This document shows positions 5,967-49,041 of a DNA stretch of 56,269 bases, one piece after another. The stretch is taken from the NCBI GenBank assembly GCA_001938485.1, contig MQRK01192887.1, positions 1 through 56,269 of the forward strand. The letters are read 5' to 3'. The translations under genes and the position numbers were made by a program. The number at the start of each line of letters is the position of its first letter. The first letter of the stretch is position 1. The notes beneath the pieces were generated by a model. The model worked only from the letters and a program-made list of their open reading frames with translations. It searched no databases and was not told the origin of the DNA. Origin of the DNA: Girardia tigrina (Eukaryota).

Positions 5967-6080
5967 ATGTCGAATGACGAAAGCTTTGCTGAGAGTTGTC
6001 CAAAGGACAATTCAAATTGTATTGAAAATAAATGTTCAAGAACCCGTATTGGTGTTCTTAACAACAATTATATAATCTAA
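5967..6080 (+). CDS. Short ORF family member 1 (37 aa, MSNDESFAESCPKDNSNCIENKCSRTRIGVLNNNYII)
   Basis: Gap-free codon alignment with four other copies, each downstream of a block A. Confidence 0.5.
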   Translation: MSNDESFAESCPKDNSNCIENKCSRTRIGVLNNNYII

Positions 6081-6438
6081 ATGGTGTACTAACTGCAGTC
6101 GTTTTAATGTTTTATTTATATATTATAATTTAAAGAAAGGCTGTCCCCAAATCCACGTTACTAAAGATTGATGTAGGATCAAATTTCGGCAAAAAATATA
6201 ATCTGACTGAAAAAAGAAAATTTTATAATTTACAAGTTATATTTTAATTATAGATATATTATTTTTTATTATATATATATATATATATATATTTTATATA
6301 AAATTAAATTAATAAATTCTAAATAATTAATCAAATAGTTTGTAAATCATTTGACTTATTTATTAATTGTTATCAAATTTTTTATCAAAAATTTTTCAGA
6401 TTTGCAGCTCAAACCGACACTGGACAGAGAGATAAATA

Positions 6439-6678
6439 TCATCTGTAAAATTTGTAGTAGACAAACAGACGATTAAAACTTATAAAAGTGAGGTAAAAAG
6501 AAACACAAATGAAACATTCATCTTTTCTTAGGACGTTCTTTTCTTTTAACCATTCTGGAGGATGCAGATCATTTCTACTCAGGCCGTTTCTCATCGGAGG
6601 TTTTTCCTCTAAAATTTCTCTTCCAACGTTCTTCCTCCTATTGTTTCTTATACGATTTTTTTTCTTTTGGTTTGACAT
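6439..6678 (-). other. Orphan protein-like ORF fragment (basic N-terminus MSNQKKKNRIRNNRRK...)
   Basis: GC-richer island with protein-like composition; no family recognised. Confidence 0.25.
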
Positions 6679-9600
6679 ATAAAAATACAAAATCAAAAAC
6701 TAAAATAAAAATCTTAATTTAAAATGAAAAACCTCAATACAAATTTTCTTAAAAATAAAATCCGTTTAAAAATATATGTTAGAAATTAAAATGAAATGTT
6801 AGGAAAATTTTTAAAATAAGGTTAAATTAAATAAGTACAAATTAAAATTTATATATATTTAAATATGTAAAGTTTGAAAAAGAAATTTCGTCTTACTTAT
6901 TTCGTAATTAAACTGTTAAGAATTAAAAATTTTTGACATAGTCTAAAATGTAATATACGAAGTAAAATGTGTAATTTTTAAATGTGTAACGATTTTTAAA
7001 AATTAATAAAATTAAACGAAACAATAATATATTTTAAAATGTTATCGTAATTTAAAATTGATTTATAAAATTAAAATAAAATGAAATATTATTATTATTA
7101 GTATTTTGTTTATATCTGATTAAGATTTATAAAACAAATTGTTTCTCAAATAATATAAGTTTGTTTAAATATTAGATTTCAACAATTTTTTTGTTGTGGA
7201 TAATAATAAAATTTGGATATCTGAAATAACTCTTAATACTTATTCTGAGGATGTTCCAAGAACATCTAATAATATAAATTTTAAAAAAATAAAATTAACA
7301 TATCCACCATTACATTTTATACGAAAATTACAATTTAATTACCAAAAAATTAATAAAAAATACCAAAGCTAAAGATTAATATAAAAATAAAATTTTACTA
7401 CTGAAAAATAATTTTGATTTGAAAATTTGAAATTGCTTTTAGATAATTTAGTCTCAAATATTTTTTTCGAATCTCAAAATCTTATGAAAAAAGTCAACAA
7501 CGCAAATCAAATTTTTGATGAAAAAATTGTCTTTCAGATAAAGTTTTTTTTTATGTTTATCATCACTCTGCTCAAATGATAAGGAAGACTCGCTCGTCTT
7601 TAAAATAATTTTCTAATATACATACAGCAATATACAGATATATACGGATTTCAGTGTTATATATTTGTCGATTTATTAAAAATTTAAAATTAAAAAAAAG
7701 CATTTCTACGAAAGCTATAGTTAGACTTACAAGATTTATTTTCTAAATAATGTTATTAATGACTATATGAAAAGTTTTTAAATTTTATAACTAATCAATA
7801 TTAAAACCAACTAATTTTTAATACAAATGCATATCTTTTTAAATTTTTTTTATTATTTTACCTGGTTTATTAAGCAGACAAATGAATAGCTAACTGGCCG
7901 AACAAACTATACAATCGTTCGATTCAAGATACACTGAATCCATAAAAAAATTTAAATGCATCCAATGTTTCATCCGATCTCCAGCTTACCCCAAATACCA
8001 GACAATGGTAACAGAGGCATGGTGCTCGTTACTTTCGTACTGGGTTCATTTTATATTTATGGTTTGACTGTTATTATTTTGGTTCGAGATCATGAGTCAG
8101 TAGCAATCAAAATCAAGAGCTTAACGTCTTTTAAAATTAAATTCATAGCATTCGTCCTAAATCATATCAAATTTACCAGTAAAAATTAAACAACTTCGTT
8201 GCTAATCATAAAAATAAATGTTCAAATAATAATTGTCTCAAGGTTCTTAACATACATAATTGTATTAAAAAGTTTCTAAAATATAAAATACATTTAAAGG
8301 CTGCAAGGAAATAAATGAATTAATTTTAATATTAAAAAGAAAAAATAAAACAATATTTTAACTTCAAAGCTTTAATAGTCATTGTGAGAGTAAATGATAA
8401 TAAATTGAGTAACAAATAATTAGTAATTGTTTTAATATTTGGAAACTTAGGCGGGAAATTTCAGTAGAGCTTAAGAATTGTGGAGTTAAATAAATTCTCA
8501 TTTATTATCGAACTTTGTCTTTTGATTTTGTCGCAACAGTTATCATAGTTTATAAACTAATTTAATTTTTGGTAACACCCTTGACCACTTTATATCATCT
8601 AAAATTGTTTTTTATCTATTAAATTCTTTTAATCATAAACTTTTCTTCTCAGGACGGAAATATCAAAAAATAAATACATTCATAAAATATGATGAGATAG
8701 AATAAATAAAATGTATTTTGTGTATATTAATACTGTAAAAACATTAAAAATTTAAGAAAAAATAATATAATATTAATAAAGAAATATAATTTTTTTATTT
8801 AAATTCTCATTTGCATTAACAAAATATGAAAATGTCAATTTAATTTTTATTATTTTGTTTTGAAAAAAAATTACACTTACTTTATAATTAATTTAAATTA
8901 ATTTCTTTTCGATTAAAATGAAACAAAAAACCAAATGATATTTTTATCATTTCATTATTTTCAAAATATTTTCAAATATTTCTTAGAAATTTGACATTGA
9001 ATAAAAATAATTTATTTTTTTTGCATTTTCTCAAGACGATTTTGAAAGACAAAAATACAGAATATCTTTAAAAAGTCTCAGTTCGTATAATTATTGAGCC
9101 TGGAGCTATGATAGCGAATTTTTATAATAATTAATATGAGTCAGAGAATATGTTGATAAATTCTTTTCAGGAATATCTCTAAATAAATAAAAATAAATAA
9201 ATAAAAACATTTCCCCATAAACTTCATTAATTTTAGATGACTTAGCGGAATGAAAAATAACAATTGATAGAATGTACCAAAAAATTATTTTTCATAATTT
9301 TGTATGATGGAGAAAAAAGAGTTATTTTTCTTCAGTAAATTTCGAAAGATAACTAAATTAATATTATATTTACTGAATGTTATCTTAGAAATAGTGCTTG
9401 GAATCCGGGACAATATTTCCATTCCAAAGATTTATTGTCTAATAAGAATCATTATTAGATTCTTATATTAGATTAATATTTTCGAAAAATTTTCCTCAAG
9501 CATAAAAGTAACAAATTAATCCTCTGTAAAAATACAAATATTTTACAAACACATTTTATATTAACATAATAATTTTGTAAACATAATTTTTTAAATTAAC

Positions 9601-10920: not shown

Positions 10921-10921
10921 A

Positions 10922-10975
<54 letters not shown>

Positions 10976-11409
10976 NNNNNNNNNNNNNNNNNNNNNNNNN
11001 NNNNNNNNNNNNNNNNNNNNNNNNNTATATATATATATATATATATATAGTACCGGTCAAAAGTCTTGAGCCATCTAAAAATATTTCAAAATGTCACAAA
11101 TATATGCAAAATTATATAATCTGTTGAAATAAATTTAACATATTTTATAAACCAGATAATCCTGCATTATGTAATGGTATGGGTATTAAAAATATGTCCT
11201 GCTTTAAGATTCTAAATGATAAAATAAAATTGTTTAAATATTCTATTGGGTCAAAAGTTTTGAGCCACTTTCAAACTGTCGTTATAATTAAAATTTAAAA
11301 ATTGGTTTGTTTCAAAAGGATAAGTATGTTTTATGCCATAAATTATATTAATATATAAGTAGAAAATTACTAAAATATCTGAACTGAAAAGATAGTAATT
11401 GTTGATGCA

Positions 11410-12368
11410 ATGAAAAACAAGAAATCCCAAAGACAAATGGCAGAAGAATTTGGAGTTTCGCGAAGAAATGTACAGGAAATATATGAAAAATCTCTAAACA
11501 CTATGTCTGTAGTAGATAGGTACAGATCAGGCAGTCCTACAAAGACAACTCTACGAGAAAGATGTCATTTGATAATAATAAGCAAGAAAAAACCTTTTCA
11601 ATCTTCAACAATTCTTCAAAAAAAAGTGAATAAGTAGATTAACAATGTCTAATTCAACAGTCAAACGAATCTTACGACAATATGGTTTGTATAGACAAAA
11701 AGCTGTTTTGAAACCTCACTTAACAGCAAAGCAAATCAAAACGCAAAAACACTGTTGCCATCAGTATAGTATTTTAAGCGATAAATATTTCAAAAAAAAT
11801 ATGATTTATTTAAAGATTTATATAAAGATTTATTTATACCCAAACCGTCGTGTATATGTCAGAAGAAGCAGAAAACAACAATGTCACCCTAGGAATGTAA
11901 AGTCTTCAAAGACATTTGGAGGGAAATCTCTAATGATATTGGGATTCATTAAATTAGATGGTTCTCGTGTTTTGGTTAGAGGCAGCTATTATATGAATTC
12001 CACTGAATATATATATCACTACTGCAAAATGAACTTTTCCCAAATTTTTATTCCGACGAAATTTTTCAACAGGACGGTGATCCTTTTTATAGAAGTAAGC
12101 AATCAATAACATTTCTTGAAGAAAATGCAATCAACTACATTTGTGATTGGCCAGCACAAAGTCCTGATTTAAATGTAATTGAAAATATGTGGTATTATGT
12201 AAAACAGAAACTATATTTACTGAATTTAACAATATCAATGAACTTTAGATAAACTTTAAAAAAGAATTTTTCGAAGTCCCGAATGACTATATACGAAATT
12301 TATATGCTTCCTTTATGACAAGGATAAATGCTGTTTTAGCCGCTAATGGAGAAATAACAAAGTATTAA
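11410..12368 (+). pseudogene. Tc1-family transposase, frameshifted (second D to E spacing of 35)
   Basis: HTH region SQRQMAEEFGVSRRNV..RSGSP, then FQQDG...WPAQSPDLNVIENMW; several stops and frameshifts. Confidence 0.9.
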
Positions 12369-12576
12369 ATGAATTATTTTATTCATTATTCGAATAATAA
12401 ATGTTCTTCATGGTTTTCATTTTGTGATTTTGCACAAAATAATAAAAAAGTAAGAGTGGCTCCAGACTTTTGACCGCATTTGGCCATTTTGTGTTGCTGT
12501 GTTTGTGTATCGTATTTGATATTATTCTGATGGCTTCATCTGTAAATTGTGCTTCATATACAGTTTTTTCAACTTT

Positions 12577-15044: not shown

Positions 15045-15941
15045 TGGGACCTTTTCCTTCACCTGCCTCGGTGACGGTGCAATGAATAGGCCCGAGGCCG
15101 ACGTGAAAGAAAAACTCACTGGTCCCAACACTCGTGTACTGCGCATTTCTACCACTTTCTGTCATAACTTCAACACGTCATCTGCTTTAGCATTGAAACG
15201 GAGTAGAGCTCGAAAATTACCATCATTGTTCTCTGGTTCACTTTCTAGTGCAATGAGACCAGAATCTCGATGCCCCCTTAGCACCAAGCCTTGCCTTCCA
15301 CACAACAGAACTGTTTCGATGATTGGTACTAGACTTTTTCTGTTTTTTTTCATTTGACGTCTTGCCTCATTGTCAATCTGGAGAATGACCGGAAGCTGCT
15401 TACCAGACACTACTCTGCTAGCGTTTAAGGCAAATTCCGCACAGCGTATATGATACAGACACTTCTCGTGTGTAGAGAAGCGTTCACACGTATCTTTCCA
15501 GTTATCAAACGTCATTGTGCACAACTGTCCTAAAGGCTGACTTCCAGATACTCCGGCAACTGGATTGAAAAGTAAACAGAACTTACAAAATGCACCATCC
15601 TGAGAGGCTGAATACGCTAGCCACTTCCACTGATAGAGCCACTTCTGTTGAAAACCCATGTTCTTAGGTCCACTTGGTGGAAACTTAAATTGGGGCTCCG
15701 GAATCCATAGATTCTCCAACATTTCTACTTTCTTGGGATCAGTCATAATGGTGTTTGCCCACAGTCCAATGTCAGTGACAGGGAAAACTTGCATGTCATT
15801 AACACAGGTTGAATTGTGCATGTTTACAGAAGACACTTGACACACGGGAATAATAGGGACGATGGATTCCGTGTCATCCGACTTCCGGGGTATTTTTACG
15901 AAATAGTTCAGAAGAAATACACTTGGTCTCTTAGAGCTCAT
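15045..15941 (-). pseudogene. hAT transposase N-terminal half (ZMYM1/THAP12-like, TTF zinc finger plus DUF4371-like region), truncated
   Basis: FQQKWLYQWKWLAYSASQDGAFCKFCLLF and LRGHRDSG...NDGNFRALLRF motifs. Confidence 0.85.
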
Positions 15942-16074
15942 TCAGTTGTGTTATATATTTGTATTAGAAATTCCAAAATTCAATTCAATTTTTATCAAAA
16001 ACTTATATTTGATCCAAATTTATCACAAGCAAATTTATTTAAAAAAAACAATTTCCTTTTTTTACATAATAACT

Positions 16075-16183
16075 GTGAGGAATATTTTAAATTTGGTATG
16101 TTGAAATTGGTTTGTTGAATTTTGTATGTTGAGTTTAGTATTTGGAAATGTGTTTCTCCCATCCAGATGGAAAATTGATATTT
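16075..16183 (+). promoter_or_regulatory. Conserved block A, module copy 2
   Basis: GTGAGGAATATTT..three ~14-bp T(A/T)TGTTGA units..GTGTTTCTCCCATCCAGATGGAAAATTGATATTT. Confidence 0.55.
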
Positions 16184-16507
16184 TAGATGTTCACGATAAA
16201 TAATTATTCGAGTATAATTTACATTTTAAAGTACAGCATAAGATATTTAAAAACTTTAAGAATATTAAATCGTTTCAAATTTTCATATTAAAATTTAAAT
16301 AAAGTAAATAGTTTTAACTAAGTTTTGAATTAAATAAATGTTCTTTCTTTCCATAAAATAATTTTTTAATTTAAATTAATATGTAAATAAAATTATTACT
16401 AAAATTACAAAATTAGGACTTTAAAAATAAAATCTGAAAATAATGAAAAATTTGTTCGAATAGTTGTTTATTAAAAAATATTAACTAAAAGTTATCAATT
16501 TAGAACG

Positions 16508-16609
16508 ATGTCGAATTACGAAAGTTTTGCTGAGATTTGTCCATAAGACAATTCTAATTGTATTGAAAATAAAAGTTCGAAAACCCATGGTGATGTTCTT
16601 AATAATAAC
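16508..16609 (+). pseudogene. Short ORF family member 2, premature stop at codon 13 (MSNYESFAEICP*DNSNCIENKSSKTHGDVLNNN)
   Basis: Close paralogue of 5967-6080; TAA at 16544-16546 replaces AAG. Confidence 0.5.
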
Positions 16610-16711
16610 CTTTTTAAAAAAGGTTATTTCATTAAAATTCTTTTTCATTAATTTTATAATAAAATTTTAACAATCTTAATCAAAATTTTAAGTTTTTCGG
16701 TTCATATATTT

Positions 16712-21940: not shown

Positions 21941-22570
21941 ATATTAGGCCGTCCCAAAAGTCTTCAGGTGGCCTTTAAAAACACACTAATATTTTACCAA
22001 ATTTAACCAAATTTGGACTGAATATTATTCAGACTGTCATAAATACTGTGTTAAAATTTCAAAGAATAAAATTAAAAAAAGTAAAATTTTGTTTTATTAA
22101 AGTATTGAAATTTTAAAAGTGCAGCGAATTCAAATCAAGCGGTTTTTAACAATGGAACCAAATAAATGTTGCCAACATTTTTTTGTTCTAACTCAAAGTA
22201 GAAGAGGATTCTCTGCTTCAGAAATTCTTCAGCAACTTCAGCAGGCATGGGAAGACACAAATCACCCAGCACTGAAAACTATTCAACAATGGTTGACTGA
22301 TTTTAAAAAAGAAAAGCGGACGTCCTTCATCAAGAAGTGGCAGGCCGTCATTAATAGACGATGAAAAGATTAAAGCAGTCAAAGAAGTGATTGATGAAGC
22401 TCTAAATGCGTCTTTGGGTTATATTGAAAATGAACTTTCTTTAGACAAAAATAGTCCACAAAATTTTGCGTGAAAAACTTCATTGCAAAAAAGTTTGCTC
22501 TGTTTGGGTCCCTGACGAACTTTCTGCTGCTAATAAACAACAACGCATTAACACTGCTAAGCATATACGC
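21941..22570 (+). mobile_element. Mariner element, 5' half (defective)
   Basis: TATTAGGCCGTCCCAAAAG TIR-like start; HTH GFSASEILQQLQQAW..TIQQWLTDFK, then RSGRP and WVPDELS motifs across frameshifts. Confidence 0.85.
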
Positions 22571-23473: not shown

Positions 23474-26373
23474 CACGTTGTCGACCGGCAATTTTACGCC
23501 AAATCTATTGTAGGTAACCGACTATCTTTCCGAAATTCAATGTGGAAGTGAAAAAATATAAAGAACTTTCAATATAAGCCTCCTACGACTGCACGGATAA
23601 CTGTGTGTTTTAGAAACTACAGTACCAGCATTGGTGTACAGGGTAGTGAGTCATAGACTCTTTATCGGATAGAAACCAAAAAATAGACAATACAGAGCCC
23701 ACTGAATTTCTCTCACGGCCTTAGATGCAAGAATGCAAGCTTTTAGTAGACGGACACGCTTCGGTTTACCAGTCAGAAAGGACTAGTTATGATTCCTCGT
23801 ACTTTGATTCTATAGAGATTTATCTGTGTAAACACATTTTGTACAATGAGTAAAAGGACACCGAAATATCCCCACATCATTTGTATTATTTATTTGAAAG
23901 TCGAGAACCACCCGTTGAATCACTCTTTATTCCATCTCCGAGGTACCAACGATGGGCACTGACACATTGGGTTCGAAGATTTTGTACATCCTTCATCTAC
24001 GTTATTTTGTGAAGCTTTAATACCATTGGTACTGCCTTGGGTTCGATGATTGATTAATAAATGTCGCTTTAACCATCGATCCGTTTCATAGATCTTGTGA
24101 CAATTTCCCGTGGGACATTGGAAAAGTCTGTCACCATTCTGTAGCTGCGGTGTCGTAACCGTATGCATGTTTTTGATGTGTCTTCTTTGGTTCCTTCTGT
24201 TCCTCAAAAGCTTTGAAACAAGAAGAATACGTGCATTACACTCTTTTGATAGCGGCTGGAGAATTTTCAGTTTTTCAGACACAGTTCCTTTGATCATGTG
24301 TTTGAATTCCTCGTCACTGTCGAGAATTCCTCTCCCATTCAAGCATTCCTGGTATTCGACCAGATCTTCTTGGCCGCCAAGTAAACAGAGCATATCGCGG
24401 GCCATATGCACTTTCATCAACTGCTTTTTACGGTCGCTGAATTTTCTATTTCCTGAAGCCATTTCGGAGTTTAATACTCTTTCTACCTCACGTACACCTT
24501 TTCGTGTATTGTACTCAAAGAATACAATACGCCGTTTCACCAGTATCACACGCGCCTCGGACAAACCAATTTTACATATCCGTATTACATATTCTGCCAA
24601 GTTTAATTTTACCAAGATCAGTACGTGTGCAGGTATTATGAAGAGTTTGTAGCAGAGTTACCTCTTTTTCAGGTCTTGCCCAGCACTCACTCCCATAATA
24701 AACTGCCGGAAAAATGCTTGATTCGATTAGTCTTCTTTTCAGCGCTATAGGAACTCGGTTACTTTGAATTGCATACTGCAATTCTCGTAACTTACTCATT
24801 CCACAACGCAACCGCTGACCGATATCCCGACTGAAGCTACCACATGAAGTCAAAATACTGCCAAGATAACAAAACTCGCTCACCCATTCTATGACTTTGT
24901 CACCACCCATCACTTGCGATATTCCTGTCCTCGAGTCCTCAGTTAGGCACATAACTTTCGTTTTACATGCACTAATAGTCAACCCAAATTCTGAAAATGT
25001 GCTTCTAAGTACATCCAGGTTTTTATAGGCACCATCAAGATCAGAGTCGATAATACATAGATCATCTGCATAAGCAAGTCTATTGACTTGAAATTCGTCA
25101 CCATACTCGGCGATCAGGGTAATTCTTCGAACGAATCCTTTCAGTATCGCATTTTTGATGACTTCATCGAAGACCAAGTTAAAAAGACTAGGTTTGTTAC
25201 ACATCCCTGCCTGATACCTCTTTCCATGAGAAACTCACAATCTTCCATGGAATTCCTTGAACAGGTTGAGAATCTTGTAAGTCAAGTCAAATCTTTTCAT
25301 GCTGGCTCACAGAGCTTCACGCGGGGCACTATCAAATGCCTTTTCCAAATCGACGAATATCACAAATACTTTCTGGTTTGTATATCGACCTTCTTCCTGT
25401 ATCCGCCTGAGTATACTTATAGCTTGTATAGTTCCTCTTTTCGGCCGAAAACCGAACTGGGAAGGGTCTAACCTTTCTTCCATCACCGGCGTCATTCTAT
25501 TTACGATTATTCGTCCAAAGACTTTGTCGGTGACTTCCAAGAGGAAGATCCCTCCTTAATTATTCGGATTAGACCTAGTAAACTTTCCCTTGAAAAGTGT
25601 TACCACTTTTGCACTCCTCCAAGCCGTTGGGAACTGATGATCACCCCGTTCCAAATTACCTCTAAATCGAGCTTCAATCGAGCTCGCCCCATTATAAAAC
25701 CTCTGTAGTCACCCCATTTGAGTCGGATGCCTTCTCACTACTCATTTGTGAGCAATCGTATCATTATGGCAATCCGTAACTCTTCTGTGTTTGGTGGATC
25801 TATACCGATACAACTTTCATCAGGGAATCGAGTCATATCCGCCAACTCAATAAATGAACGCGCTTCGAAGAGCTTCTGTAATGACTTGCCATTTGATTAT
25901 TGGGAAACTGATGGCTCTAGCGTAAAAAGCGTATGCATTTTCGTTTCTGCATTCCCCAGCATATGCAATTCTAGATAAGCCACATCTTTCTGCTTGAGGG
26001 TTCTAACATTACTTAGATTGATCAGTCTATCTCGCTTCCATTTACAAATAGAACTAGTTACCTTATTTCGTGCGGCTCTCAAGCGTTGCAAATTTTCTGC
26101 AGAAGGTTGCAATATCCATTTTTTCTGTGGTGACTCTTTTCGTTTATGAGATGACATTGTTCAGTTTTGTGATCAGGTAACCAGCTTCCTTTTAGAGGTG
26201 TTATTTGACCTTCCAGTTCTTTTCCACTAGTGATGTAATAACTTTCTCTTTGTTTCAATAATTTTAACTTTCAATAATTTATTTGCAGTATTCTATATTT
26301 ATCTGGGTTTCATAACTTAAAATAGCTAATGCAAATGCAAAAACGAGTTAACTGGGGACCGGTAAACAATGTA
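23474..26373. mobile_element. piggyBac-like non-autonomous element interrupted by an RTE insertion
   Basis: TTAA-CACGTTGTCGACCGG ... CCGGTAAACAATGTA-TTAA: imperfect TIRs with TTAA on both sides. Confidence 0.5.
23600..26235 (-). mobile_element. RTE-like LINE, 5'-truncated and frameshifted, with C-terminal C2H2 zinc finger(s)
   Basis: QFGFRPKRGT, FVDLEKAFDS, LAYADD, FCYLGS, YGSECW and FQCPTGNCHKIYETDRWLKRHLLINH. Confidence 0.93.
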
Positions 26374-27034: not shown

Positions 27035-27169
27035 TTAAATTTTATTTATTATTAATAATAAAATATGGATATTATTAAGAAAACTAATTTGATTTTCAAT
27101 GCATTTATTGATATCACAATTTGAATTGCTACTCGGAGAATTCTCCATAAAACTTTCGTAACAAATCAT
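27035..27169 (-). CDS. Short ORF family member 3 (44 aa, MICYESFMENSPSSNSNCDINKCIENQISFLNNIHILLLIINKI)
   Basis: Gap-free alignment with member 1 (ESF.E..P..NSNC..NKC....I..LNN); about 205 bp downstream of block A copy 3. Confidence 0.5.
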   Translation of the reverse strand: MICYESFMENSPSSNSNCDINKCIENQISFLNNIHILLLIINKI

Positions 27170-27374
27170 CGTTCTTGATTGATAAATTTTAATTCTATTT
27201 CTAAACGTTTTATTATTTAAACAAATTTAAATTACAATTTAATAATTTTCATAATAATTTGAAATATTTTAAAAAATATTTTAAATATATTGTTTTTGAT
27301 AAATTAATTTAATTTAAAAGTTATTTATTTAAATTTTAAAATTGATTAAATAATCCGACGTTTTAAAATATTTA

Positions 27375-27463
27375 AAATATCAATCTTCCATTTGGTGGGA
27401 GAAACACAATCCTAAAACAACATACCAAACAACACACAATAAACACCATTCATAAATATTCCT

Positions 27464-27466
<3 letters not shown>
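27375..27466 (-). promoter_or_regulatory. Conserved block A, module copy 3
   Basis: Reverse complement TGAGGAATATTT..TGTTT/TGTTG tract..GTGTTTCTCCCACCAAATGGAAGATTGATATTT. Confidence 0.55.
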
Positions 27467-27503
<37 letters not shown>

Positions 27504-30158: not shown

Positions 30159-30374
30159 ATGAAGACGCTGATGGATATCAATAATGAAATCGTAGAAATT
30201 GCTCGTTCTGTAAGTAAGAACTGGCTGCTGTTGGAAAGGCAATTGTATTTCAAGAAATCTATACACGACTCGGGTAACCGCAAAATAAAACTCCAAAGTC
30301 TCTCTAGCAAGTCGAAGTGGAGGAAGTACCGACATGATTCTGTAGTGGTTATTACTAACAAAAAAGGTTCATAA
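30159..30374 (+). pseudogene. Death-domain-like fragment
   Basis: EIVEIARSVSKNWLLLERQLYF...KWRK resembles death-domain helices 1-2 (IA..G..W..L.R.L); runs into the inverted-repeat arm. Confidence 0.4.
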
Positions 30375-30586
30375 TCATTTTAAAACAGTGTAAAACCGTT
30401 AATTATTTTCCTTTCAGGTTGTTTTGTTTTGGATTTTTATTTCGTAAGTACGAGTTGAATTTTATTATTTTAGTTTAATTGTAAAATAAACACTAAATTT
30501 TGTCACTTCTAACATTAATTAATTATTCAAACAATCTGTTGTTATTTTATATATTTTTGTTCAAAATTAAATATTAATGTTGAAAA

Positions 30587-31049
30587 CAAGTTAATAAAAA
30601 GTCTAGTGACAATTTAAGCGCAATTTCCTTATGTTATTCGGTGCCCAATTATTAAAACGTTTATATCAGTATTTGACTATGATTAATTTTTTGTGACCGA
30701 ACGAAAGGATATTTTTGAAAACTTTCTTCGGCAATATTGTTCTAAATTATTGCAGGAATCGATTGGTAAATGTTTCAAGTCGCTAAGTGGTCTGGTTGCC
30801 GAGATATAGGCCAAAAACTGCATTTTTTCGAGGTTTTTTGGCTTTTCCGGGAAATCCATGAAGGAATTCCGGGAATTCTTTTGGCCCACAATCATCCTCC
30901 GAACTTGCTTAACATATTTGCTTTTGGAACTAGCCCTTGATATTGCTTCGTTGAGGAGGAGATACGACTTAAAGCTGCGGACACACATCCATCCATCCAC
31001 ACAGAAATAACCAATTAATAATCGCAATTGTCAGTATGGAAATTGCGCT
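30587..31049. mobile_element. Helentron-associated (HINE/DINE-1-like) non-autonomous element
   Basis: Absent from the other arm; inserted in an A/T run with no obvious TSD; 12-bp subterminal IRs AGCGCAATTTCC (30617-30628, 31038-31049), terminal hairpin, (CATC)n tract, AACAAG end. Confidence 0.7.
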
Positions 31050-31859
31050 AAAAAGTACATTTATTTCTATCAGTAAAAATGAAAATATGAGCTCACAAAT
31101 TACTTAATTTTATGTTTAAATTAATTTTATATTTAATTCACCAAATATTGAAATATATAATATTATATAAAGTTTTATTTAGGAATTTAAATTATAAATT
31201 ATATATTGTTATATTTATTTATAAATTCCTCTCTTCCCTTGTCCAAAGACGATTCAAATCAAAATTTTATTGTGTTATATTAAATTAAAATTCACTTATC
31301 ATTTATCGTTTAATTTCGTTGCTTGCTATATATAAAGATATGTATAAATAATTAAATAGTATTTAAATTAAAAAGAAAATTAAATAATTAATGAAACAAA
31401 TTAAATAAAAATAATTGAATTTAAAAGTTATTTATTTCTTTTTTGTTAAACGAAACAAAAAACCATTTTTTAACGATGACTCGTGGTAATTAGCTGATTT
31501 GTGCGTGCGCCGATTGTTTTGTCGAGTGGCAAGTGAATGAAATTCCTCGTTCTGATTGGTTTACCTATCAGAGCGAACCGTGAGCCAGACATTATTTCAC
31601 TTTTACAATTTTGAAATTTTGTGGAACGCTTTGAAAGATTATAATTTTGACATTTTGTCGAACTGTGATTTGAGTTCTGAAATCACAATTTATTTGTCTA
31701 ATTTGAATTTCTTATTACGAATATTGCTAAATCCAATATATAAAAAAATTATTATTCGATAAGTAAACATTTACTATTGTAAAGCTCACTCTTTGTTCTA
31801 TGCAAGATATAGGCCAAAGGGGGAGCTTTAACAATTAGTTATTAAAATTTTATCGCTTA

Positions 31860-32875: not shown

Positions 32876-32989
32876 TCAATCATCTACTGAGATTCGAGTA
32901 ATGAAAATATTAACATTTAAACATTTATTATTATTACAAATAGAACTATCATTACAAAAATTCTTCAAATCACTTTCACTATACGTTAT
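32876..32989 (-). CDS. Short ORF family member 4, most divergent, ATA at the start position (ITYSESDLKNFCNDSSICNNNKCLNVNIFITRISVDD)
   Basis: ES, D, C and NKC at exactly the same codon positions as member 1, same length (37 codons); preceded by TCCAG-AAAG. Confidence 0.4.
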   Translation of the reverse strand: MTYSESDLKNFCNDSSICNNNKCLNVNIFITRISVDD

Positions 32990-33241
32990 CTTTCTGGATT
33001 AATATTTTTCTGTAGATCATTCTTCTTTTGAAAACAAATGGAAAATATTTGTAATATTAATTAATTATCAAAACTCTCATTGGTTAAAATCAAATTTAAA
33101 CATTTTTTTAAAAAAGATGCACCAATTAAATTAATACATTAAAATTTTAAATTACATTAAAAGTTAAATATTTCATCTGCAACATATATTAAATATTTGT
33201 AATTTAAAATAAAATAATTTTCAAATAGTAAGAATCAAAGA

Positions 33242-33337
33242 AAATACCAATCATCCATCTGGGTACGAAAGACACAATCTGAATCAACACACAACATTCA
33301 AATGATAAAGTAACAAAAAATTCAGTAGATTCCTCAC
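33242..33337 (-). promoter_or_regulatory. Conserved block A, module copy 4
   Basis: Reverse complement GTGAGGAATC..TGTTGTGTGTTGA..GTGTCTTTCGTACCCAGATGGATGATTGGTATTT. Confidence 0.55.
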
Positions 33338-33781
33338 CGATAAATACAAATATCATTATAAAAACTTTTTTATTAATTGTAAAATTAAATACTTCAAGAT
33401 AACAGTATTGGAAAATCGTTAGACTTTTAAATTCCTTCTTTGAATTATCTGTTACTAATTTGAGTTAGAATTCATCCATCCGCATTATCATCGATGTAAT
33501 GCATTTAGATCTAACCTTATACAAGTGGGAATTAAATAAAATAAAATAATGTTAATTCAAATTTATAGAAGAAGTTGTGACATCTCTCCAAAGAATATGT
33601 GTTATGGAATTAATATAAGAAATAAATAATAATAATTTGTGTAGGATATAAATAAATTATTTTATTAATAAAGATAAAACGAAGATATTTCTCGTATATA
33701 CCAATAGATTTAATCCTAAATCTATCCGAATGGGACTTAATGTAATAAATCTTTATAATTAAAGTTATCGTTTTTCTTTAA

Positions 33782-34789
33782 CACATTGTAATCGGATCAC
33801 GTATTAATACGTTTTTAGCAAATTAATGCTAGAGAGCGGATCACGTATTTATACATTTTTGATAGATTGTTAGTGGAGCGCGGGTCACGTTAAAATACGG
33901 GTTCCAATATACTTGAGTTTTCGCTATATAGCGTCTGTAGGGTTGTACCCATGCAGATAAAAACCTTTTGAGAACAATAGATGGGGTGTACGATGGGTAC
34001 CGAGGTAGTGTTATTCATCACAAAAATAGTCGAATATAACGGTACATATAACGGTCTACATGCAACACTAAGACGAAGAATAATATTTTTTTTAGTTTAT
34101 TTCACTACTCTTTGGTGGTCGGACGTTGCTAAAAGCTAAATATCGAGTACATAGATATTATATATATTACGTACATGGACTTCCGATTCGATTCATGAAG
34201 AAGTTATTTCTGAAGATCCAGGGCCATCGACATCTTCATGGAAAAGGGCTCCTTCTCGTGACCCTCCCGGAAGGTTTTCCATGGACATGCGCAAACATGT
34301 GATAGCCAAAATTGAAAGCAAGGGAAAGAAGAAATTTGTTCAAAGGCAATGTCATGTCTGTTCAGCGCGCAAGGTACGTAGTGAAACATGCTTCATATGC
34401 AAATTTTGTGAAATTCCCCTACACAGGGGCAAATGTTTTGAAAGATATCACACCCTAAAACAATACTAATTTTTATTTTACATTTAGAAATAATTTTTGT
34501 GTATAATTTGTAAAATAAAGGATGTGATGTAAAAAAAATATGATTTTTTTCAAAACTTTCCTACTTTATGTGAAATTCTGCACTAGTTTAACGATGAAGA
34601 AGACATTTCTAAATATAATAAAATAAAATGTAATAAAATAAATAATTTGCAAAAAGAATTATTGAAATCAAACAAATATTTTTGAAGTTATCGCAATTTT
34701 TCTAGAGGTCTACGTTAGCGCGAAATTACGCGAAAAATCACCCATTACCAGCACTAGTACGCGGCCGAAAACTGCCCGATCACAATGTG
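33782..34789 (+). mobile_element. Non-autonomous piggyBac element retaining the C-terminal Cys-rich domain
   Basis: TTAA TSDs, TIR CACATTGT(A/G)ATCGG, ORF ...RQCHVCSARKVRSETCFICKFCEIPLHRGKCFERYH. Confidence 0.93.
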
Positions 34790-35699: not shown

Positions 35700-36300
35700 T
35701 ATAACATATTAAATATTCATGGAGGGTATGTACACAGACAAACGGATAAATCACAATACTAAGGTAACATTTGACAAATTATGTACACAAACACTAGTTG
35801 AGAAAGAACCAAATGAAGTAAATATAAAAGAGCACAAACACAATACCATATTTTTAAGGATTTAAAGCATTTAAGAAGAGTATTTGAAAGAATATAAGTA
35901 GTGTCAAAGAAGTTTAAATGACATCCAAAGTTGAAAGATTCCTTTCAAATAAATCGAAAATTATTTGTAGATTGCAAGCTGATTTAGTTTATATATTTTA
36001 TTGTCATGGGTGTAAACACTCGCACATCGGAGAGACAAATCGTCATTTCAAAATCCGGATTAAGAAGCATTTACAATCAAGTCGATCGAATAACGTTCTT
36101 GATCATTAGTTACACTTTAAAAAGAATCTATTCTATTTTAAAAGATGAATTTTCTGTTTTACAGAAAGACTTTGCTTCACACTATGATCTGCAATTTTCT
36201 GCATTATTATTAATATGACACCACAACCCTTTCATAAACATTAAAAATGGACATTATTATTACAAATGACACCTTTAATAAACAAGACACCACAACCCTC
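35700..36300 (+). mobile_element. Penelope-like GIY-YIG fragment
   Basis: LVYIFYCHGCKHSHIGETNRHFKIRIKKH; similar to 221-372. Confidence 0.8.
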
Positions 36301-36441: not shown

Positions 36442-36527
36442 TATTTATAATATTCACAAATAAACTTGAAAAAAGATGGCAATTTTTTATTATAAACAAA
36501 TAAACGCCATTGAAAAATATATTTTAG

Positions 36528-36566
36528 GATAATATATTTCGACGGTTTAACCGCCATCATCAGATC
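36528..36566 (-). ncRNA. Minimal type I hammerhead ribozyme in the Penelope pLTR
   Basis: Reverse complement GAT-CTGATGA-T-GGCGG(ttaaa)CCGTC-GAAA-TATA-TT-ATC; intact core, palindromic stem III. Confidence 0.8.
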
Positions 36567-37957
36567 ACTGATTATGTTCTTTTTTATTGCTTTTATATAA
36601 GAAATGAAAGCTTATGTAATCACTTACGTAAGTCTAATCGAAAACTCTTAACAAATTAGTTGAGAGTGCTGTTTGAACATTGATTTTAGGATCACATGAT
36701 CTTATCAACAATGCTTCACATGACACTCTCTCCTAATAATTTTTAAAATACTTGCACAAAATCTTAAAATCATTTATGCTCATATTACATTTACACTTTT
36801 TTATTTATGCTCAGCAATATTACTCTTTCCCCCTTTTTGACTGTGTTCTTGGACTCGTTTGCAGAGATGACGGGCAGACTCTCCGATGTATGTGGCATTG
36901 CATCCATTACATGTGTATTGATAAACAATGTCCGAACACAATCCTAAAGGAGTATGTGATTTATTGCAAAACATATTTTCAACTTTAAATGATTGAGATA
37001 TAATTTTTAAATTTAAAATGTTATCTGTTGATTTGAAGATCGAATTCTTGAGGTGTTTAAAACCCTTGGAGTAAGGTAAGCTTAGAGTATACCAAGGTAT
37101 AAAGCAGTTTTCAATGTTTAAACTATTATTTTTTTCATTTTTGATTTTTTCTTTTTTGATTATTTTATCTACAGTCTCACGAGTGAATCAGTCTATGATG
37201 GACTTAGAGTAACCGTTATTATTCAATAACTTGCTCAATGTATGAATACTTTTAATAGATTTTGAAAACGTGGAAGAAAGAGACCAAGAGCGGTATAACA
37301 AACCTTTGATCATATTCCTTTTATATTAAAACTCACAAAAACTGTTTATGGAGGTGTACGAACCTGTATCAGTTTTCTTTCGATATATTTCAGTTTCATA
37401 ATGATCATTTTTCCTTTCAATTAACAAATCAAGGAATGGTAATTTTCCGTTTATTTCCTGTTCTAGTGTAAAGATTATATTTGGATGAATCGAATTCATG
37501 TAATCTAGAAAAGGAAACACATGTTCTCGAGATTTAAAGACTAGAAAGATATCATCCACATATCTCTTATAAAGTAGTGGTTTTTTCCCCAAAAACAATT
37601 CTATTTTTTCTTCAATGGAAGAAAGAAATATAGAGGCTAACGTCGGAACCAATGGTGAACCCATTGCAACCCCATCAAGAACACAGTCAAAAAGGGAGAA
37701 AGAGTAATATTGCTGAGCATAAAAAACGAGTAAATGTAATATGAGCATAAATGATTTTCAGATTTTGTGCAAGCATTTTAAAAATTATTAGGAGAGAGTG
37801 TCATGTGAAGTATTGTTGATAAGATCATGTGATCCTAAAATCAATGTTCAAACAGCACTGTCAACTAATTTGTTGAGAGTTTTCAATTAGACTTACGCAA
37901 GTGATTACATAATCATTCATTTCTTATATAAAAGCAATAAAAAAGAACATAATCAGT

Positions 37958-37996
37958 GATCTGATGATGACGGTTAATCCGTCGAAATATATTATA
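37958..37996 (+). ncRNA. Minimal hammerhead ribozyme in the inverted pLTR
   Basis: GAT-CTGATGA-T-GACGG(ttaat)CCGTC-GAAA-TATA-TT-ATA; one stem I mismatch. Confidence 0.75.
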
Positions 37997-39681
37997 CTAA
38001 AATATATTTTTAAATGACGTTTATTTGTTTATTTATAATATATTTGTTATTTATGAACAATATTATTCCCTGATCCATCTAGAAGTCCACTTCTCCGGAA
38101 ATTATTTAAATAGATACCACCACTGAAAAATATATATTTAATATCTTGTTCCTAGTAAAATAAGATGTTTGGCATTAATTTTTCTAGTTACGTTGAGCTT
38201 TTGTACTTACATGGTCAAGATGAGCATTGATTTGAAACCCGTGCAGAGGAGAGAATGTTGATATAAGAGTCTTATTTTTCTTTTTTTCAGTTGATAAAAT
38301 GTTTTCAATGTACATTTCATCATTATTATTTGATTTGCAAGACAGTTTTGCTCCTAGAAAACTTTATTATCCTCAAAGGAGATTTTGTTATATTTCAATA
38401 ATAAGTGAAAATTACATAAAAATTTTAAAATAAGCAAAAGATAAATTTAAATTTTTTAATATTAGGCTTTATAATTCGTCTACCACAAATATACAAAAAT
38501 ATCTTGAATCATAATTACACTGTCTTAGTGCAAAGTTTTTAACAAACTAAGAATAAATTAGCATATAAAGCAAACGAAGTTACGCCGATGGAATTAATAA
38601 TGAAAAGCTTTTTTCACATCAGAGTGCCTAGTAATTCAATGTTTTCAAGGATAACGTTTAAGTAAACGAGTTATACAGAACATTTTATAATAACTTTACG
38701 CTCCAAAACAGTTCGGTTTCACCAAAAAAATCATAAACTGAATTTAGTCACCTAAACATAAAAGGCCTTTAAATTATGAATATTTCTAGAAATTTGTAGG
38801 GTAAAAATTGAGTCAGTACAATGATGTTCAGAGTGTAACCCCAAACTTTAGGCAAAAGAGTTATCAAACAACGAACAATTTCTTCCGTCAGTTAAAAAAT
38901 AATGAATAAGTTAGGATTCCAATGATGATACGTTAAAAAAATTTTTATCTACAATCAAAGTGAATGCTTGAATCAATTATTAAATAAGAACAGGGGCGCC
39001 AAGTTAACAAAATGACTCAGTTTATTGCTCAATTTGTTTAATAGATTTAAATTCAGTTTAAAATGATAATCATTAAAAAAATCATTTTAAAGTACAACAG
39101 TTTTATGTCTGTTTCAAAGCTGGGTGCGTGCAGGGTTCCAGTTAATATGTGGTGACAGTAGGGGGAAATGGGCATTCGGCCTCACGAGCATTGTAAAATA
39201 ATTTTTTCAATACAAAAATCTTTTAAACACATCACACTTAATTACTGGTCAGATAGCATTGCACTGATTCAGAGTAATGAGCGGATGCCTTGTCCAGCCA
39301 GAATAAACTGTTGCCGATCAAATCATTTTTTTCTATGAAAGAAATGATTGTTCGGGATTCGAACATTTTAATTATTATATTTTTGTTTTTTAAATTAATT
39401 ATTATCATCATTATATATTCTTTTCAAAGTGGAGAAAATCAAATCAAATTGAAATGGAAAATTAATTCATTAATTTTCGTCATTGAAATTATTCGATGGA
39501 AATTGAATAATTTGAATTGTAAAAATCATATCTAGTTTTGAAAAATTCAGTAGTTATTTTTTAAGAAAAATTTTAATGTTTGTTTGTAAAAAATCGAGGA
39601 ACTTTACAATTAATAACGTTTGTTTTACTATATCATTGAAAATATTTTGATTACAATAAACGGAATTATTTTTGAAATATG

Positions 39682-40433: not shown

Positions 40434-41320
40434 ATGAATGAACGAGGAATAACGAAATTTGAAATCGATAATTATTGAATATTTGAACCGAATTACGACT
40501 TTATGTTTTCATGTGAAAAATTTATGAAAAATTTACGATTATTGATCGATGAATTTGGATCAAATGAGAGATCTCTCGATGAGGACACCGCCTGCCGCCG
40601 GTTGATTTCATCGCGAATCGTGGCAATCCAAAGGAGGTCATTTGTATTTTAAACGTTTATTTCGATAAAACCGATTCGATATTTCTCGGTCTTTTGTTTC
40701 TGCTATTGAATGCTCTACATATAATCGATTCGTCGTCTTCCGGTTTCGTCAATGTTCTCTGAGAACCGTTAAATTGCGCTATTTCCTACTTCGATCACGT
40801 ATCGGTCGCGCATCACGAAGGGCACGAGGGAACCGAGCTCGAGAGGTACATCGAGGTCACAGAGACTCGACAACTGCTGTCGCTCACGAACTCTTATTTG
40901 TCGTTTCTCGAAACGCTAATGAAGAAAGATGAACTTCTCAATCGATCGACAGCAATTCCAAACAAATTTTTGTGGAATAGTTTACGACTGTTCAATCGGA
41001 GTCTCGTTAAACTCGTGTTCTATTGTCCGGGCGTCGTCGGGGAGGAGTGTCGAGCGAGTAGGGTGCGAATATTTCGATTAGCCGAGCGATGTGTGACGTG
41101 TTGGCACGAGTGGCTTCAGCGAGGCAATCCAATTCTCTCTGAATCACCTTCCTCGAGCATCGTATCTATTCTCTATCACATTTTCGTCTCTGAAATCTCT
41201 GTCAAATTTCCCCAAATTCTCTTGATTAATTACAATTGGTCAATTTGCGTCCAAAGAATTTCTTGTTCCCTCTATTCTAACCAAAACGATCCTCATGCTG
41301 TTCGACTTTGTCTTGTTCCC
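40434..41320 (+). pseudogene. Intronless host-gene pseudogene, possibly glomulin/ALF4-like
   Basis: One frame nearly open from ~40583 to 41320 (one internal TGA): DFIANRGNPKEVICILNVYFD..LLFLLLNALHII; NPKE plus helical context recalls glomulin. Confidence 0.4.
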
Positions 41321-41595
41321 TCTGACTGCGCTCCAAGCGGTTTCAAGTCATTTCAAAGTAAGGAAGATAAGTACGAATCTAAAGCACACTTTTTTGATAC
41401 CCATGGATTTCAATTTTCCGTGGGTTGTATCAACACTGATGTTGAGCTTCTTTAAACGCATTTTCATGGTAATTCGACGCTATTCTTGGACCATCTTCTT
41501 AAATTTTTTATTTAGTTTGGGTTCGATCATCGGTTACTCTCCGATCTTAAGACACGTCTTGAAAATGCGAGTGTCAGTTGGAAGAAAGACAAATA
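41321..41595 (-). mobile_element. Mariner transposase fragment
   Basis: MVQE*RRITMKMRLKKLNISVDTTHGKLKSMGIKKVCFRFVLIFLT matches the mariner second HTH and WVP-region pattern. Confidence 0.7.
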
Positions 41596-41602
41596 CAGTC
41601 AA

Positions 41603-42049
41603 ATGGGATTGATGAGGGCGTTACAAATCACTGCGACGGCTAATTTCAATCGGGAAATTCGAAGAAGTGTACTCAATAATCATCACCCTGAGCGTCAGTT
41701 AGCTGTACACTTCAATGTCGTATTCAAACCTAACTATCAAGCGAAAATCACATCACCAGATGCAGAAATATTATCTAATCATACAGATTATCACGTCAGG
41801 CAACAATCCAGTAACAACAAGAACCTGTTGAAATTAATGAATGATTCTTTCATCGATTATCCGAGTGATGAAAATGGAACAGATCAACGAATACAGGACG
41901 ATCTCAATAAATGGGCCCAGCAAATTCGAGCTAAGCCACGGCGCAGCTCTGCTACCTCCGTCCGATTCTCGGGCAACCTGAGGGTCGGGTGGACCAATGA
42001 TTCTGCGTTGAATGCAGTAGAATTTGTAGATATTACTGCTGATAACTAA
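41603..42049 (+). other. Unidentified 148-codon ORF within the mosaic
   Basis: Open, protein-like composition; not recognised. Confidence 0.3.
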
Positions 42050-42079
42050 TCATTGACGCCATATAAACCAATCCGATAT

Positions 42080-42469
42080 TCAACAGTCCGAGACAGCGTA
42101 CCACAGTCCCAGTTTTATGGGGTATTTGGTGACATCAGTATACTTAATTCGATTTGGAGATGTGGTCGCATCCTTGGAATAGACGTGTGAGAAAGAGAAA
42201 TTAACAGAATCATTCACTGTTATGTATGTTTCTTCATTCAGGATGATTAGTGGAGGTTGGTGGCAGTTGCTTAGAAGATGCTGATTGTTAAGAATGACAA
42301 ACATTCTTCTGACTTTGTTTGAAAGACCTGTAGAAGGGAACTTTCTTTCGTTTCCTATGCTCAACACCAGCTCTTTGTAGAATATTGGCGATGGATTTGT
42401 GACAGACATTACAACTTTTTGCTGGTTGTCGTACACTTTTTCTGTTTTATTGTTGTAGGAAGAAACCAA
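42080..42469 (-). other. Unidentified 129-codon ORF within the mosaic, convergent with the previous one
   Basis: Open, protein-like composition; not recognised. Confidence 0.3.
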
Positions 42470-42600
42470 ACCACCCTAACCCCCTCAAAAATGGAATCTC
42501 CCCAGGATTTTTCCGCTCTGATGACTCACGCTTTTTTCCACCAAATTATACTGATTAAGGTTCCATCCTTCGTAATTAAAATTTTCACAGGTTTAGGTTT

Positions 42601-42811
42601 TCTGACTGCGCTCCAAGCGGTTTCAAGTCATTTCAAAGTAAGGAAGATAAGTACGAATCTAAAGCACACTTTTTTGATACCCATGGATTTCAATTTTCCG
42701 TGGGTTGTATCAACACTGATGTTGAGCTTCTTTAAACGCATTTTCATGGTAATTCGACGCTATTCTTGGACCATCTTCTTAAATTTTTTATTTAGTTTGG
42801 GTTCGATCATC
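42601..42811. repeat. Identical 211-bp direct copy of 41321-41531 (mariner fragment)
   Basis: Base-for-base identity by inspection. Confidence 0.95.
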
Positions 42812-47272: not shown

Positions 47273-47805
47273 TAGATCGTAATGATTGATACTCATGTAT
47301 ATTTACAAACTTCAAATATTGAAGGGTAACAATTTGGTTTGATAGGGTTAAAGGCTGTAAAATTTAATTTGAATGATTTTACTTTCTACAAAGTTTTAAT
47401 TTTACACATTTTTAAAAAATTACCTGATCAATTATTAAAATGGAATAGTTTTAATAAACATGTTCATTATTTACATCACTTTTACACAGCTGATCTAAAT
47501 ATTCCCAATATAACTTGCTTTTTACTTAAATATACCAAACCCTTTATTAAGTATGAAACCCATTGCTAAATAATTTCTCGAACGATAACCCTTATCGATT
47601 GTTCTCCGGAATCTTTTCACAGAAACTACGGAAAGGACGAGGAACAAGACAAGGTTGTGGAAGTAACTGATTTTATTTGGCAAAAATAATTTTTGAATTT
47701 ATATTAACAATATTTACATATATCTAACACATTTACAATTTTATTGTATATATANNNNNNNNNNNNNNNNNNNNNNNNNNNNNNNNNNNNNNNNNNNNNN
47801 NNNNN

Positions 47806-47840
<35 letters not shown>

Positions 47841-48930
47841 AAATACATGAAACAAGTTAGGAGTGTTAACTTTCAAATGAAAAGAGAATCTAATCTTTTA
47901 TAATTTTACTTCCTCAAATTTATATTACATGAAAAAAATGTAATTTGGAAAAAACTGTTTTACTTCACAATAATTATTATAATATGTTTCATCAAGAAAA
48001 GTTAACGCCCTCTATTCAGCACTTACATTAAGTGATTTTACATTGATTGTTTGATAAAATTCCAATTTTTTATTTGTATACATATTTTTCAGATTACTTA
48101 ATACGAAAAAGTTTCCATTTTATAATAATAAATAACTTCAAGAAGTTTTATTTTGAATAAATATTTGAAATGCGTCTTTTACTTTAAAAAATTGCATAAG
48201 AGTTTACAACGTTTTAGTTTGACTTTCAATACACAATGCGGGTCTTACAACAAATTATTCAACAATTGTTTACTTAATTGTTATTATTTTTTGGAATTTC
48301 CACAATCATTTTTCTAATATTTCTTTTATTAAAATGTTTTCCTTTAAAATTTTTTTAAAAATTTCTTCCTTTTAAATCATTATAAAAATAATCATATCAG
48401 AAATATTTCAATTATTAGGGTTTCCGTTTTAATCTTTAAAGATATTTTTTTTAAAAAATCTTTAACTAATTTTTTCATTTTGATTTTATATTCTTATAAA
48501 TTTGCATGTTTATAATAATTTTTCAATAATAAAATTTAAAATATTTTCAACCATAAAATATTTCAATTTTATAATCTATAAAACATGAATTTTTTACTGT
48601 AAAATTTCTTCAGTTATATTTTAATGTGTTAAATATTTTCAAATTCTCTTGATAGATTGTAAATATTCAAATTTAAAAAATTATGTGAACTCCCTAAAAT
48701 CCTAACAGTTAATTTACTTTGCAAGTTTGTTGAGGCTTAAAAAACTCTATGGCAATTTTATACTATTATCCTAATCAATAATCTTTTATAAATTTTCAAG
48801 AAAAACTCATCTAAATATTTAAATTATAATCACTGAGTAATAATAACGACCATAAATGTTTCATATTCTAGACATGTTTGCATTAGTTCAAGTAAATGTG
48901 ATTGGTTAACATTAATAATTAACCACAGAA

Positions 48931-49041
48931 TCATATACATTCGCTATTAAGAACACCAATTTGACTTTTCATATTTTTATTTAAACAGTAATTTTGATTG
49001 TCCTTAAGAAAATTTTTGTCAAAGCTTTCGTGCGTTTGCAT
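48931..49041 (-). CDS. Short ORF family member 5 (36 aa, MQTHESFDKNFLKDNQNYCLNKNMKSQIGVLNSECI)
   Basis: Gap-free alignment with member 1 (M...ESF, KDN.N, NK, IGVLN); about 240 bp downstream of block A copy 5. Confidence 0.5.
   Translation of the reverse strand: MQTHESFDKNFLKDNQNYCLNKNMKSQIGVLNSECI

Follow-up and report, generated by a model that had tools for sequence, protein, structure and literature searches.

Five short frames in a Girardia tigrina contig match a Gag N-terminus and close dispersed repeats that are likely solo LTRs

Five short frames in a stretch of Girardia tigrina DNA (contig MQRK01192887.1, 56,269 nucleotides, hereafter the window) are the last 97 bases of dispersed repeats and match the head of a zinc-knuckle Gag-like protein. 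We consider it very probable that these repeats are solo LTRs of a retrotransposon, probably of the Ty3/Gypsy type, whose gag likely starts inside the 5' LTR. The short frame is likely a real coding frame, but one that belongs to a Gag N-terminus instead of a host micropeptide; what the window holds is likely ordinary transposon debris that adds no new host peptide family. The full-length element presumably had paired LTRs, a primer site and pol.

Results

The initial annotation had described the five frames as a micropeptide family. All five translations are present in the window, with first codons at 5967 (+), 16508 (+), 27169 (-), 32989 (-) and 49041 (-). Four of the five copies are open, as had been claimed, with a single stop in total (copy 2), and the ES and NK pairs are invariant in all copies. 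A profile built from these same five copies recovered them at E 3e-24 or better, with no further match in the window below E 1.2. Among 20000 alignments with shuffled columns, 505 reached four of five open copies in their best frame out of six and 290 had no more than one stop, which corresponds to a P of 0.015-0.025 for the openness of the frame. The block has no gap in 90 alignment columns, and the upstream conserved block has 9 gap openings in 111 columns. Since copy 4 carries a 1-nt gap at column 709, the reported absence of indels over about 33 codons holds for four copies, whereas copy 4 stays in register for only about 30 codons. The argument from synonymous changes turned out to be weak: among the window copies we observed no excess of differences at third positions, and pN/pS in this frame (0.71) is no better than in the other five (0.58-0.93).

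The homology ends one base past codon 32, a feature absent from the initial annotation, and the tails and stop codons are therefore unrelated flank. The tails are mutually unrelated in the five window copies and in five outside copies, with no common C-terminus or stop codon; in the four open window copies the stop lies 4-12 codons past the head. Reading the copies with other genetic codes (tables 4, 6 and 10) gave no longer common frame.

A profile search of 1.84 billion representatives returned five matches with the 32-residue head followed by unrelated tails, and a search among longer proteins returned three matches out of 280 candidates, two of them proteins of 370 and 388 aa with PF00098. 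The head thus forms the start of proteins 370-388 aa long that bear two CCHC zinc knuckles, which marks them as Gag. These proteins fall into two clusters of 9 and 15 members, 16 of the 24 bearing the head; two other members, P0009 and P0015, lack it, their called sequences starting only at residue 39. Altogether, 21 outside proteins have the head: 16 continue with M[AV]T[HY]D, the Gag start, and five run into unrelated flank like the window copies, from which we infer that gag is likely entered from within the 5' LTR. At position 33 all 21 have M, N or T, and because the codons for these residues all begin with A, the repeat edge is fixed. When the Gag proteins were compared with the window by tblastn, copies 1, 2, 3 and 5 were matched over the head only, up to residue 32. 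An exact protein look-up of copies 1, 4 and 5 gave no match in the collection, an Atlas search with the copy 1 peptide gave no usable match, and no loci related to P0008 were found in viral or genome contigs. A search of sequencing runs yielded nine, with a best share of 0.14.

As for the kind of Gag, P0007 and P0008 each have two CX2CX4HX4C knuckles, and PF00098 (zf-CCHC) matches them at 27.1 and 25.2 bits, above the cut-off of 20.8. No Pfam capsid family was matched in either protein, with PF03732 and PF19259 giving nothing at E 0.1; these two families appear only among the Atlas neighbours of P0008, whose look-alikes at 0.92-0.95 belong to zf-CCHC, Retrotrans_gag (PF03732) and Ty3_capsid (PF19259) clusters. 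Two structure models were poor (mean pLDDT 35 and 45), and a low-confidence model resembled the Arc, Copia, HERV-K, dArc1 and PNMA2 capsids at Z 4.7-5.3, tied with unrelated proteins. A sequence search of the PDB gave only weak nucleocapsid-type matches, the best (E 0.001) being to an unrelated protein.

Each short frame forms the final 97 nt of a dispersed unit of 352-531 nt (Table 1). The unit starts with TG in three of five copies and ends in CA or TA in four of five (CA only in copy 1, TA in three), with 6-8 of 12 bases complementary between the termini. Copies 1 and 2 are 89-92% identical over two segments, in unrelated flanks. Five-base flanking duplications are found in copies 2, 3 and 5 (5, 4 and 4 of 5 bases matching) and are absent from copies 1 and 4 (0 and 1 of 5). 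The flanks match at 14 of 25 bases in total (P 0.008 against random pairs), a figure to be read with the unit ends having been chosen after inspection of the sequences and with joint shifts of both ends by -2 to +1 also giving 13-14 of 25. In no copy does TGG occur in the 8 nt that follow the unit, and none is preceded by a purine tract. An initiator-like TCAATY lies 13-15 nt ahead of the ATG. A clear GT-rich stretch near the 3' end is seen in copies 1, 2 and 5. The match to the Gag head and its position at the repeat end together indicate that the units are likely solo LTRs, the origin of which is described in PMC7175516.

Table 1. Positions of the repeat units and Gag-related features in the window
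Feature	Position	Strand	Remarks
Likely solo LTR, copy 1	5712..6063	+	352 nt; TG...CA; no flanking duplication
Gag head, copy 1	5967..6062	+	32 codons; 27/32 to P0018
AATAAA, copy 1	6027..6032	+	likely poly(A) signal; Asn-Lys codons 21-22
Likely solo LTR, copy 2	16074..16604	+	531 nt; TG...TA; longer AT-rich middle
Target site duplication ATAAC, copy 2	left 16069..16073, right 16605..16609	+	5/5 identical
Gag head, copy 2	16508..16603	+	28/32 to P0018; stop at codon 13
Likely solo LTR, copy 3	27073..27467	-	395 nt; 5' end adjoins (AT)n run; flanks 4/5, weak, inside the run
Gag head, copy 3	27074..27169	-	13-16/32 to known heads
Likely degraded LTR, copy 4	32893..33338	-	about 446 nt; uncertain ends; no TG start or flanking duplication
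Diverged head, copy 4	32894..32989	-	7-9/32; first codon ATA, not ATG
Likely solo LTR, copy 5	48945..49379	-	435 nt; TG...TA; flanks GCGAG/GCGAA, 4/5
Gag head, copy 5	48946..49041	-	27/32 to P0007; 26/32 to P0012
Decayed gag fragment from a related element	2549..3069	-	stops and frameshifts

Judging from its lower head identity, copy 3 likely belongs to an older or a third subfamily. The decayed gag fragment is 45-48% identical to Gag residues 97-231, with further pieces up to residue 290, and no LTR of this family was found beside it. A Pfam search of 146 of the window's 172 frames with at least 55 aa, a set that leaves out 26 frames under 24% GC, gave mainly transposon domains. DNA pattern scans returned 0 matches, 5 matches and 120 loci of about 800, and neither block profile matched any of these 125 loci.

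The initial annotation had offered a fixed-spacing poly(A) or core-promoter element as the alternative to coding. We found AATAAA 37 nt from the unit end in all five copies, as expected of an LTR poly(A) signal; according to PMC3601003, LTRs have such a signal there, with a GT-rich stretch after it. The alternative is borne out in part. Both readings likely hold, the six bases serving as the Asn-Lys codons and as a predicted poly(A) signal.

Discussion

We propose that the upstream conserved block and the AT-rich middle would form U3 and that transcription may start at the initiator-like motif. The ribosome would begin at the ATG that follows and read through R and U5, AATAAA doubling as Asn-Lys. 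Reading would then cross the LTR end, with the last A and the TGG of a likely primer-binding site making up Met33: in the proteins, Met33 followed by Ala34 (or Val) implies TGG directly after the terminal A. Past Met33, translation would proceed into capsid and nucleocapsid. Because a single template gives rise to both LTRs, the 32 codons would be present in every LTR. If the two LTRs recombined, a single one would remain, flanked by its target duplication and holding an orphan frame that would terminate at whichever stop the flank provides.

The same solo LTRs might instead stem from an element whose Gag starts at Met33, the 32 upstream codons being untranslated or dispensable R-U5 kept open and gap-free mainly through promoter, poly(A) and integrase-site spacing. 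Met33 is indeed kept in all 16 proteins that continue into Gag, and between the two subfamilies the head is only 56% identical (18/32), against 80% (135/168) for residues 33-200, the capsid region. Moreover, the pN/pS ratio does not single out this frame, and the outside proteins were called by software and selected for openness. On the other hand, both subfamilies and four of the five window copies retain Met1; in those four copies it is the first ATG past the initiator-like motif, and a scanning ribosome would reach it ahead of Met33. Together with the openness of the frame and its freedom from gaps, this makes a start at Met33 doubtful, and we favor a start at Met1 inside the 5' LTR.

Adoption of some solo LTRs by the host, to make functional peptides of 36-44 aa, is very improbable in our judgment. 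Each unit does have a likely promoter, a start codon and an open frame, intact in four of five. However, copy 2 is broken and copy 4 lacks the ATG, the parts beyond the head come from the flank, and openness is accounted for by recent descent from a Gag head (27-28 of 32 residues in copies 1, 2 and 5); cleavage after AATAAA would, in addition, cut the RNA ahead of the stop codon. The micropeptide family of the initial annotation is therefore not upheld, as its frame matches the Gag N-terminus. We also think it improbable, though less so, that a recently active Gypsy-type family scatters short peptides and chimeric N-termini through solo LTRs that supply promoter, start codon and open frame, some of them translated and kept.

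We give hardly any credence to the idea that blocks A and B represent a pair of exons from a host gene family, spliced at the AG or via a minor AT-AC intron. It drew on an AT-rich middle (10-17% GC, 165-330 nt) that in all five copies comes after ATG-GAW-RAT-TG and then RTATTT, and on an in-frame ACG at most three codons from the start in every copy. Yet if the AG pointed out in the initial annotation is used, an upstream ATG exon runs into a stop after three codons, and the outside proteins, beginning with that same Met, read unbroken into Gag. The outside relatives of copy 5 have L, S or M in place of its ACG codon. The frame is that of the Gag head, and the unit ends and target duplications are those expected of an LTR; the AT-AC intron was dropped. 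Equally remote is a non-autonomous DNA transposon (hAT-, Kolobok- or Helitron-like) or a structured RNA. The fixed ends, a TTAA near the 3' end, the compatibility of copy 2 with an 8-bp duplication and the good fold of copy 1 alone (z -3.0) would suit one or the other, but the window holds no matching second terminus, outside copies preserve three further bases beyond the 8-bp edge, the window copies share no common RNA structure, and Rfam gave no match. Continuity with Gag speaks against both and for an LTR.

When gag starts in the LTR, the solo LTRs of an element look like a conserved, gap-free family of micropeptides, and screens for small ORFs will be misled by them; our findings are thus mostly a caution. 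For the study of transposons, their interest lies in the 32 gag codons that overlap R-U5, in a likely poly(A) signal read as Asn-Lys and in a Met33 that spans the LTR edge, and they raise the testable question of how the poly(A) signal in the 5' LTR is bypassed.

Relation to known elements

The units resemble the solo LTRs of animal Metaviridae (Ty3/Gypsy) modelled in PMC3601003 in their TG start (three of five copies), their short imperfect inverted ends, the AATAAA and GT-rich stretch near the 3' end, the variable T-rich U3 and the initiator-like motif. Their length of 352-531 nt compares with training-set means of 174-695 in the same source. By eye, the 5' end agrees with the CsRN1 motif of PMC3601003 at 5 of 7 positions; we take this as a lead only. 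Unlike the Metaviridae model, three of the five units end in TA instead of CA, and R-U5 holds the first 32 gag codons. In the literature that we searched, we found no statement of a gag start within the LTR of a Gypsy-type element, which does not prove its absence in print.

A precedent for a gag start in the LTR was found in Ty1 of Saccharomyces (Pseudoviridae): its gag begins in the 5' LTR (PMC3522557) and its primer-binding site lies inside GAG (PMC4974528). Ty1 thus shares with the arrangement proposed here both the start of gag in the 5' LTR and a primer site within gag. The LTR-encoded part of Gag is shorter in Ty1 than here, and to our knowledge Ty1 Gag is without such CCHC knuckles. 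Finally, Ty1 is a Copia-type element primed by initiator Met tRNA, whereas the Gag described here combines two CCHC knuckles with look-alikes of the Gypsy type.

Results

We recovered all five frames that the initial annotation had proposed as micropeptides, and found no sixth copy of their alignment (the block) in the window. The copies share 47-85% pairwise identity over 99 nt. As had been claimed, the block is free of gaps (0 over 90 columns) and four of the five copies are open, with one stop in total; openness of this degree occurred in 505 of 20000 column-shuffled alignments, or in 290 of 20000 when judged by stop count. The conserved upstream block shows 9 gap openings over 111 columns despite its higher conservation (77% vs 62%). 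At the codon level the signal is weak, and so is the argument from synonymous changes: third positions have no excess of differences, and pN/pS is 0.71 in the proposed frame and 0.58-0.93 in the remaining ones.

Every frame is the terminal part of a larger unit, in which the upstream block of ~110 nt is followed by an AT-rich middle of 165-330 nt and then by the frame. Since copies 1 and 2 are ~90% identical, including shared stretches of the middle, but have unrelated flanks, the repeat unit appears to be mobile. AATAAA lies 37 nt from the unit end in all copies (5/5), and when the 12 bases at the two termini are paired, 8, 8, 7, 6 and 7 positions prove complementary in copies 1-5. The 5-base left and right flanks match at 0, 5, 4, 1 and 4 positions, respectively; this total of 14/25 has a P of 0.008 against random pairs drawn from the window, with unit ends picked after the sequences were inspected, a copy 3 match falling inside an (AT)n run and uncertain ends for copy 4. 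Shifting both ends jointly by -2 to +1 also gave 13-14 matches. An initiator-like TCAATY is found 13-15 nt 5' of the ATG in four of five copies, none of which has another ATG within 60 nt upstream of the start. Neither TGG just after the unit nor a purine tract just before it was present in any copy (0/5).

A four-copy profile run against 1.84 billion representatives retrieved five singletons, which match over the 32-residue head of the frame and then diverge. With a wider profile, no further match was obtained among similar-length proteins (4/4 candidates examined), and three were obtained among 280 longer candidates. Two of these three, P0007 (370 aa) and P0008 (388 aa), carry the head at the N-terminus, followed by MATHDH, and two CX2CX4HX4C knuckles; the first 16 residues of P0008 are also those of copy 1. 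Their clusters comprise 9 and 15 members, of which 16 have the head, six are called from later positions and two (P0010 and P0011) are apparently unrelated. The best head identities are 28/32 (copy 2) and 27/32 (copy 1) to the head-bearing P0018, 27/32 to P0007 (copy 5), 16/32 (copy 3) and 9/32 (copy 4).

The head occurs in 21 stored proteins, of which 16 run on into the Gag start and five into unrelated sequence. For instance, P0027 has exactly the head of P0018 and then an unrelated 8-residue tail, the pattern also seen in the window copies. In P0005, the head and the next ~20 Gag residues are fused in frame to unrelated sequence, which we take to resemble a hAT-type transposase; its precomputed annotation lists PF27046, and our Pfam search gave no match. 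All 21 proteins have M, N or T at residue 33, hence the base following codon 32 is always A. Because the structure models were poor and the fold search tied capsid proteins with unrelated ones (Z about 5), the capsid assignment rests on the knuckles and on the Atlas neighbors of P0008 (zf-CCHC, Retrotrans_gag and Ty3_capsid clusters at 0.92-0.95).

The window (26% GC, 2090 N) comes from a transposon-rich eukaryote. Pfam searches of 146 of its 172 frames returned mostly transposon domains, and we recognized no host gene in the window. No LTR of the family of the five copies lies next to the decayed gag fragment.

Features of the window (unit lengths run from TGTGA to one base past codon 32)
Feature	Position	Strand	Details
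Copy 1	5967 (frame start)	+	unit 352 nt
Copy 2	16508 (frame start)	+	unit 531 nt
Copy 3	27169 (frame start)	-	unit 395 nt
Copy 4	32989 (frame start)	-	unit 446 nt
Copy 5	49041 (frame start)	-	unit 435 nt
Inverted repeat	16599-16623		perfect, 12 bp, 1-nt centre; overlaps copy 2 3' end and right flank
Decayed gag fragment	2549-3069	-	45-48% identity to same Gag family; stops and frameshifts
Nested inverted repeats	28751-31289		28751-28990 with 31050-31289, 99%; 28984-29214 with 30360-30591, 98%; frames of 213 and 115 aa inside, no Pfam match
Repeated 63-nt piece	30031-30093, 39398-39460
GIY-YIG match	35918-36106		weak; accompanies the next feature
Reverse transcriptase fragment	36492-38032		presumably Penelope-like; flanked by 311-nt inverted repeats
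GC-richer island	40763-42811		several frames without Pfam match; exact 211-nt duplication (41321-41531 = 42601-42811); only homologue found is the outside protein P0001 (88% identity over half of query), which lacks two stretches (19 codons, ~225 nt; edges not GT-AG)
Other transposon debris (Pfam)	1-254, 11383-12369, 15165-15941, 22101-22361, 24575-25555, 34155-34466		RT fragments, Tc1-type transposase, DDE_Tnp_1-like zinc finger; 15165-15941 and 22101-22361 are presumably hAT and mariner
Near-exact 257-nt duplication	55703-55959, 56013-56269		on either side of N gap; likely assembly overlap

Discussion

Our data do not support the micropeptide reading. In outside sequences the head runs uninterrupted into a Gag-like protein, and the units show a sharp edge, LTR-type motifs and, in some copies, duplications. 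The motifs are those given for animal Metaviridae LTRs in the consulted part of PMC3601003; primer site and target duplication are defined in excerpts of PMC4558846, and solo LTR formation in an excerpt of PMC7175516. We regard the copies as likely solo LTRs, belonging to an unnamed retrotransposon family in which the LTR encodes the Gag head.

In such an element, the upstream block and the middle would constitute U3, and R would begin near the initiator-like motif. Translation from Met1 would proceed through R, U5 and the putative primer site, whose TGG would complete Met33. The 5' poly(A) signal, ~70 nt past the presumed transcription start, would have to be skipped in full-length elements. 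Recombination between LTRs may have left the solo copies, the tails and stops of the window frames then being flanking DNA. It is rather unlikely that Gag starts at Met33, at the LTR edge directly after the head, instead of Met1; the solo LTR reading would be unaffected by such a start. The many near-identical full-length Gag sequences among the outside proteins suggest that two subfamilies were recently active.

Judged by its Gag type, the element is likely Ty3/Gypsy. We found no DNA loci for the Gag proteins in viral or genome contigs, and a partial literature search yielded no Gypsy-type precedent for a gag start within the LTR, the passage found concerning Ty1. According to an excerpt of PMC4974528, the Ty1 primer site lies inside GAG. 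In Ty1, gag begins in the 5' LTR, as stated in the consulted part of PMC3522557, and our candidate element would work in the same way.
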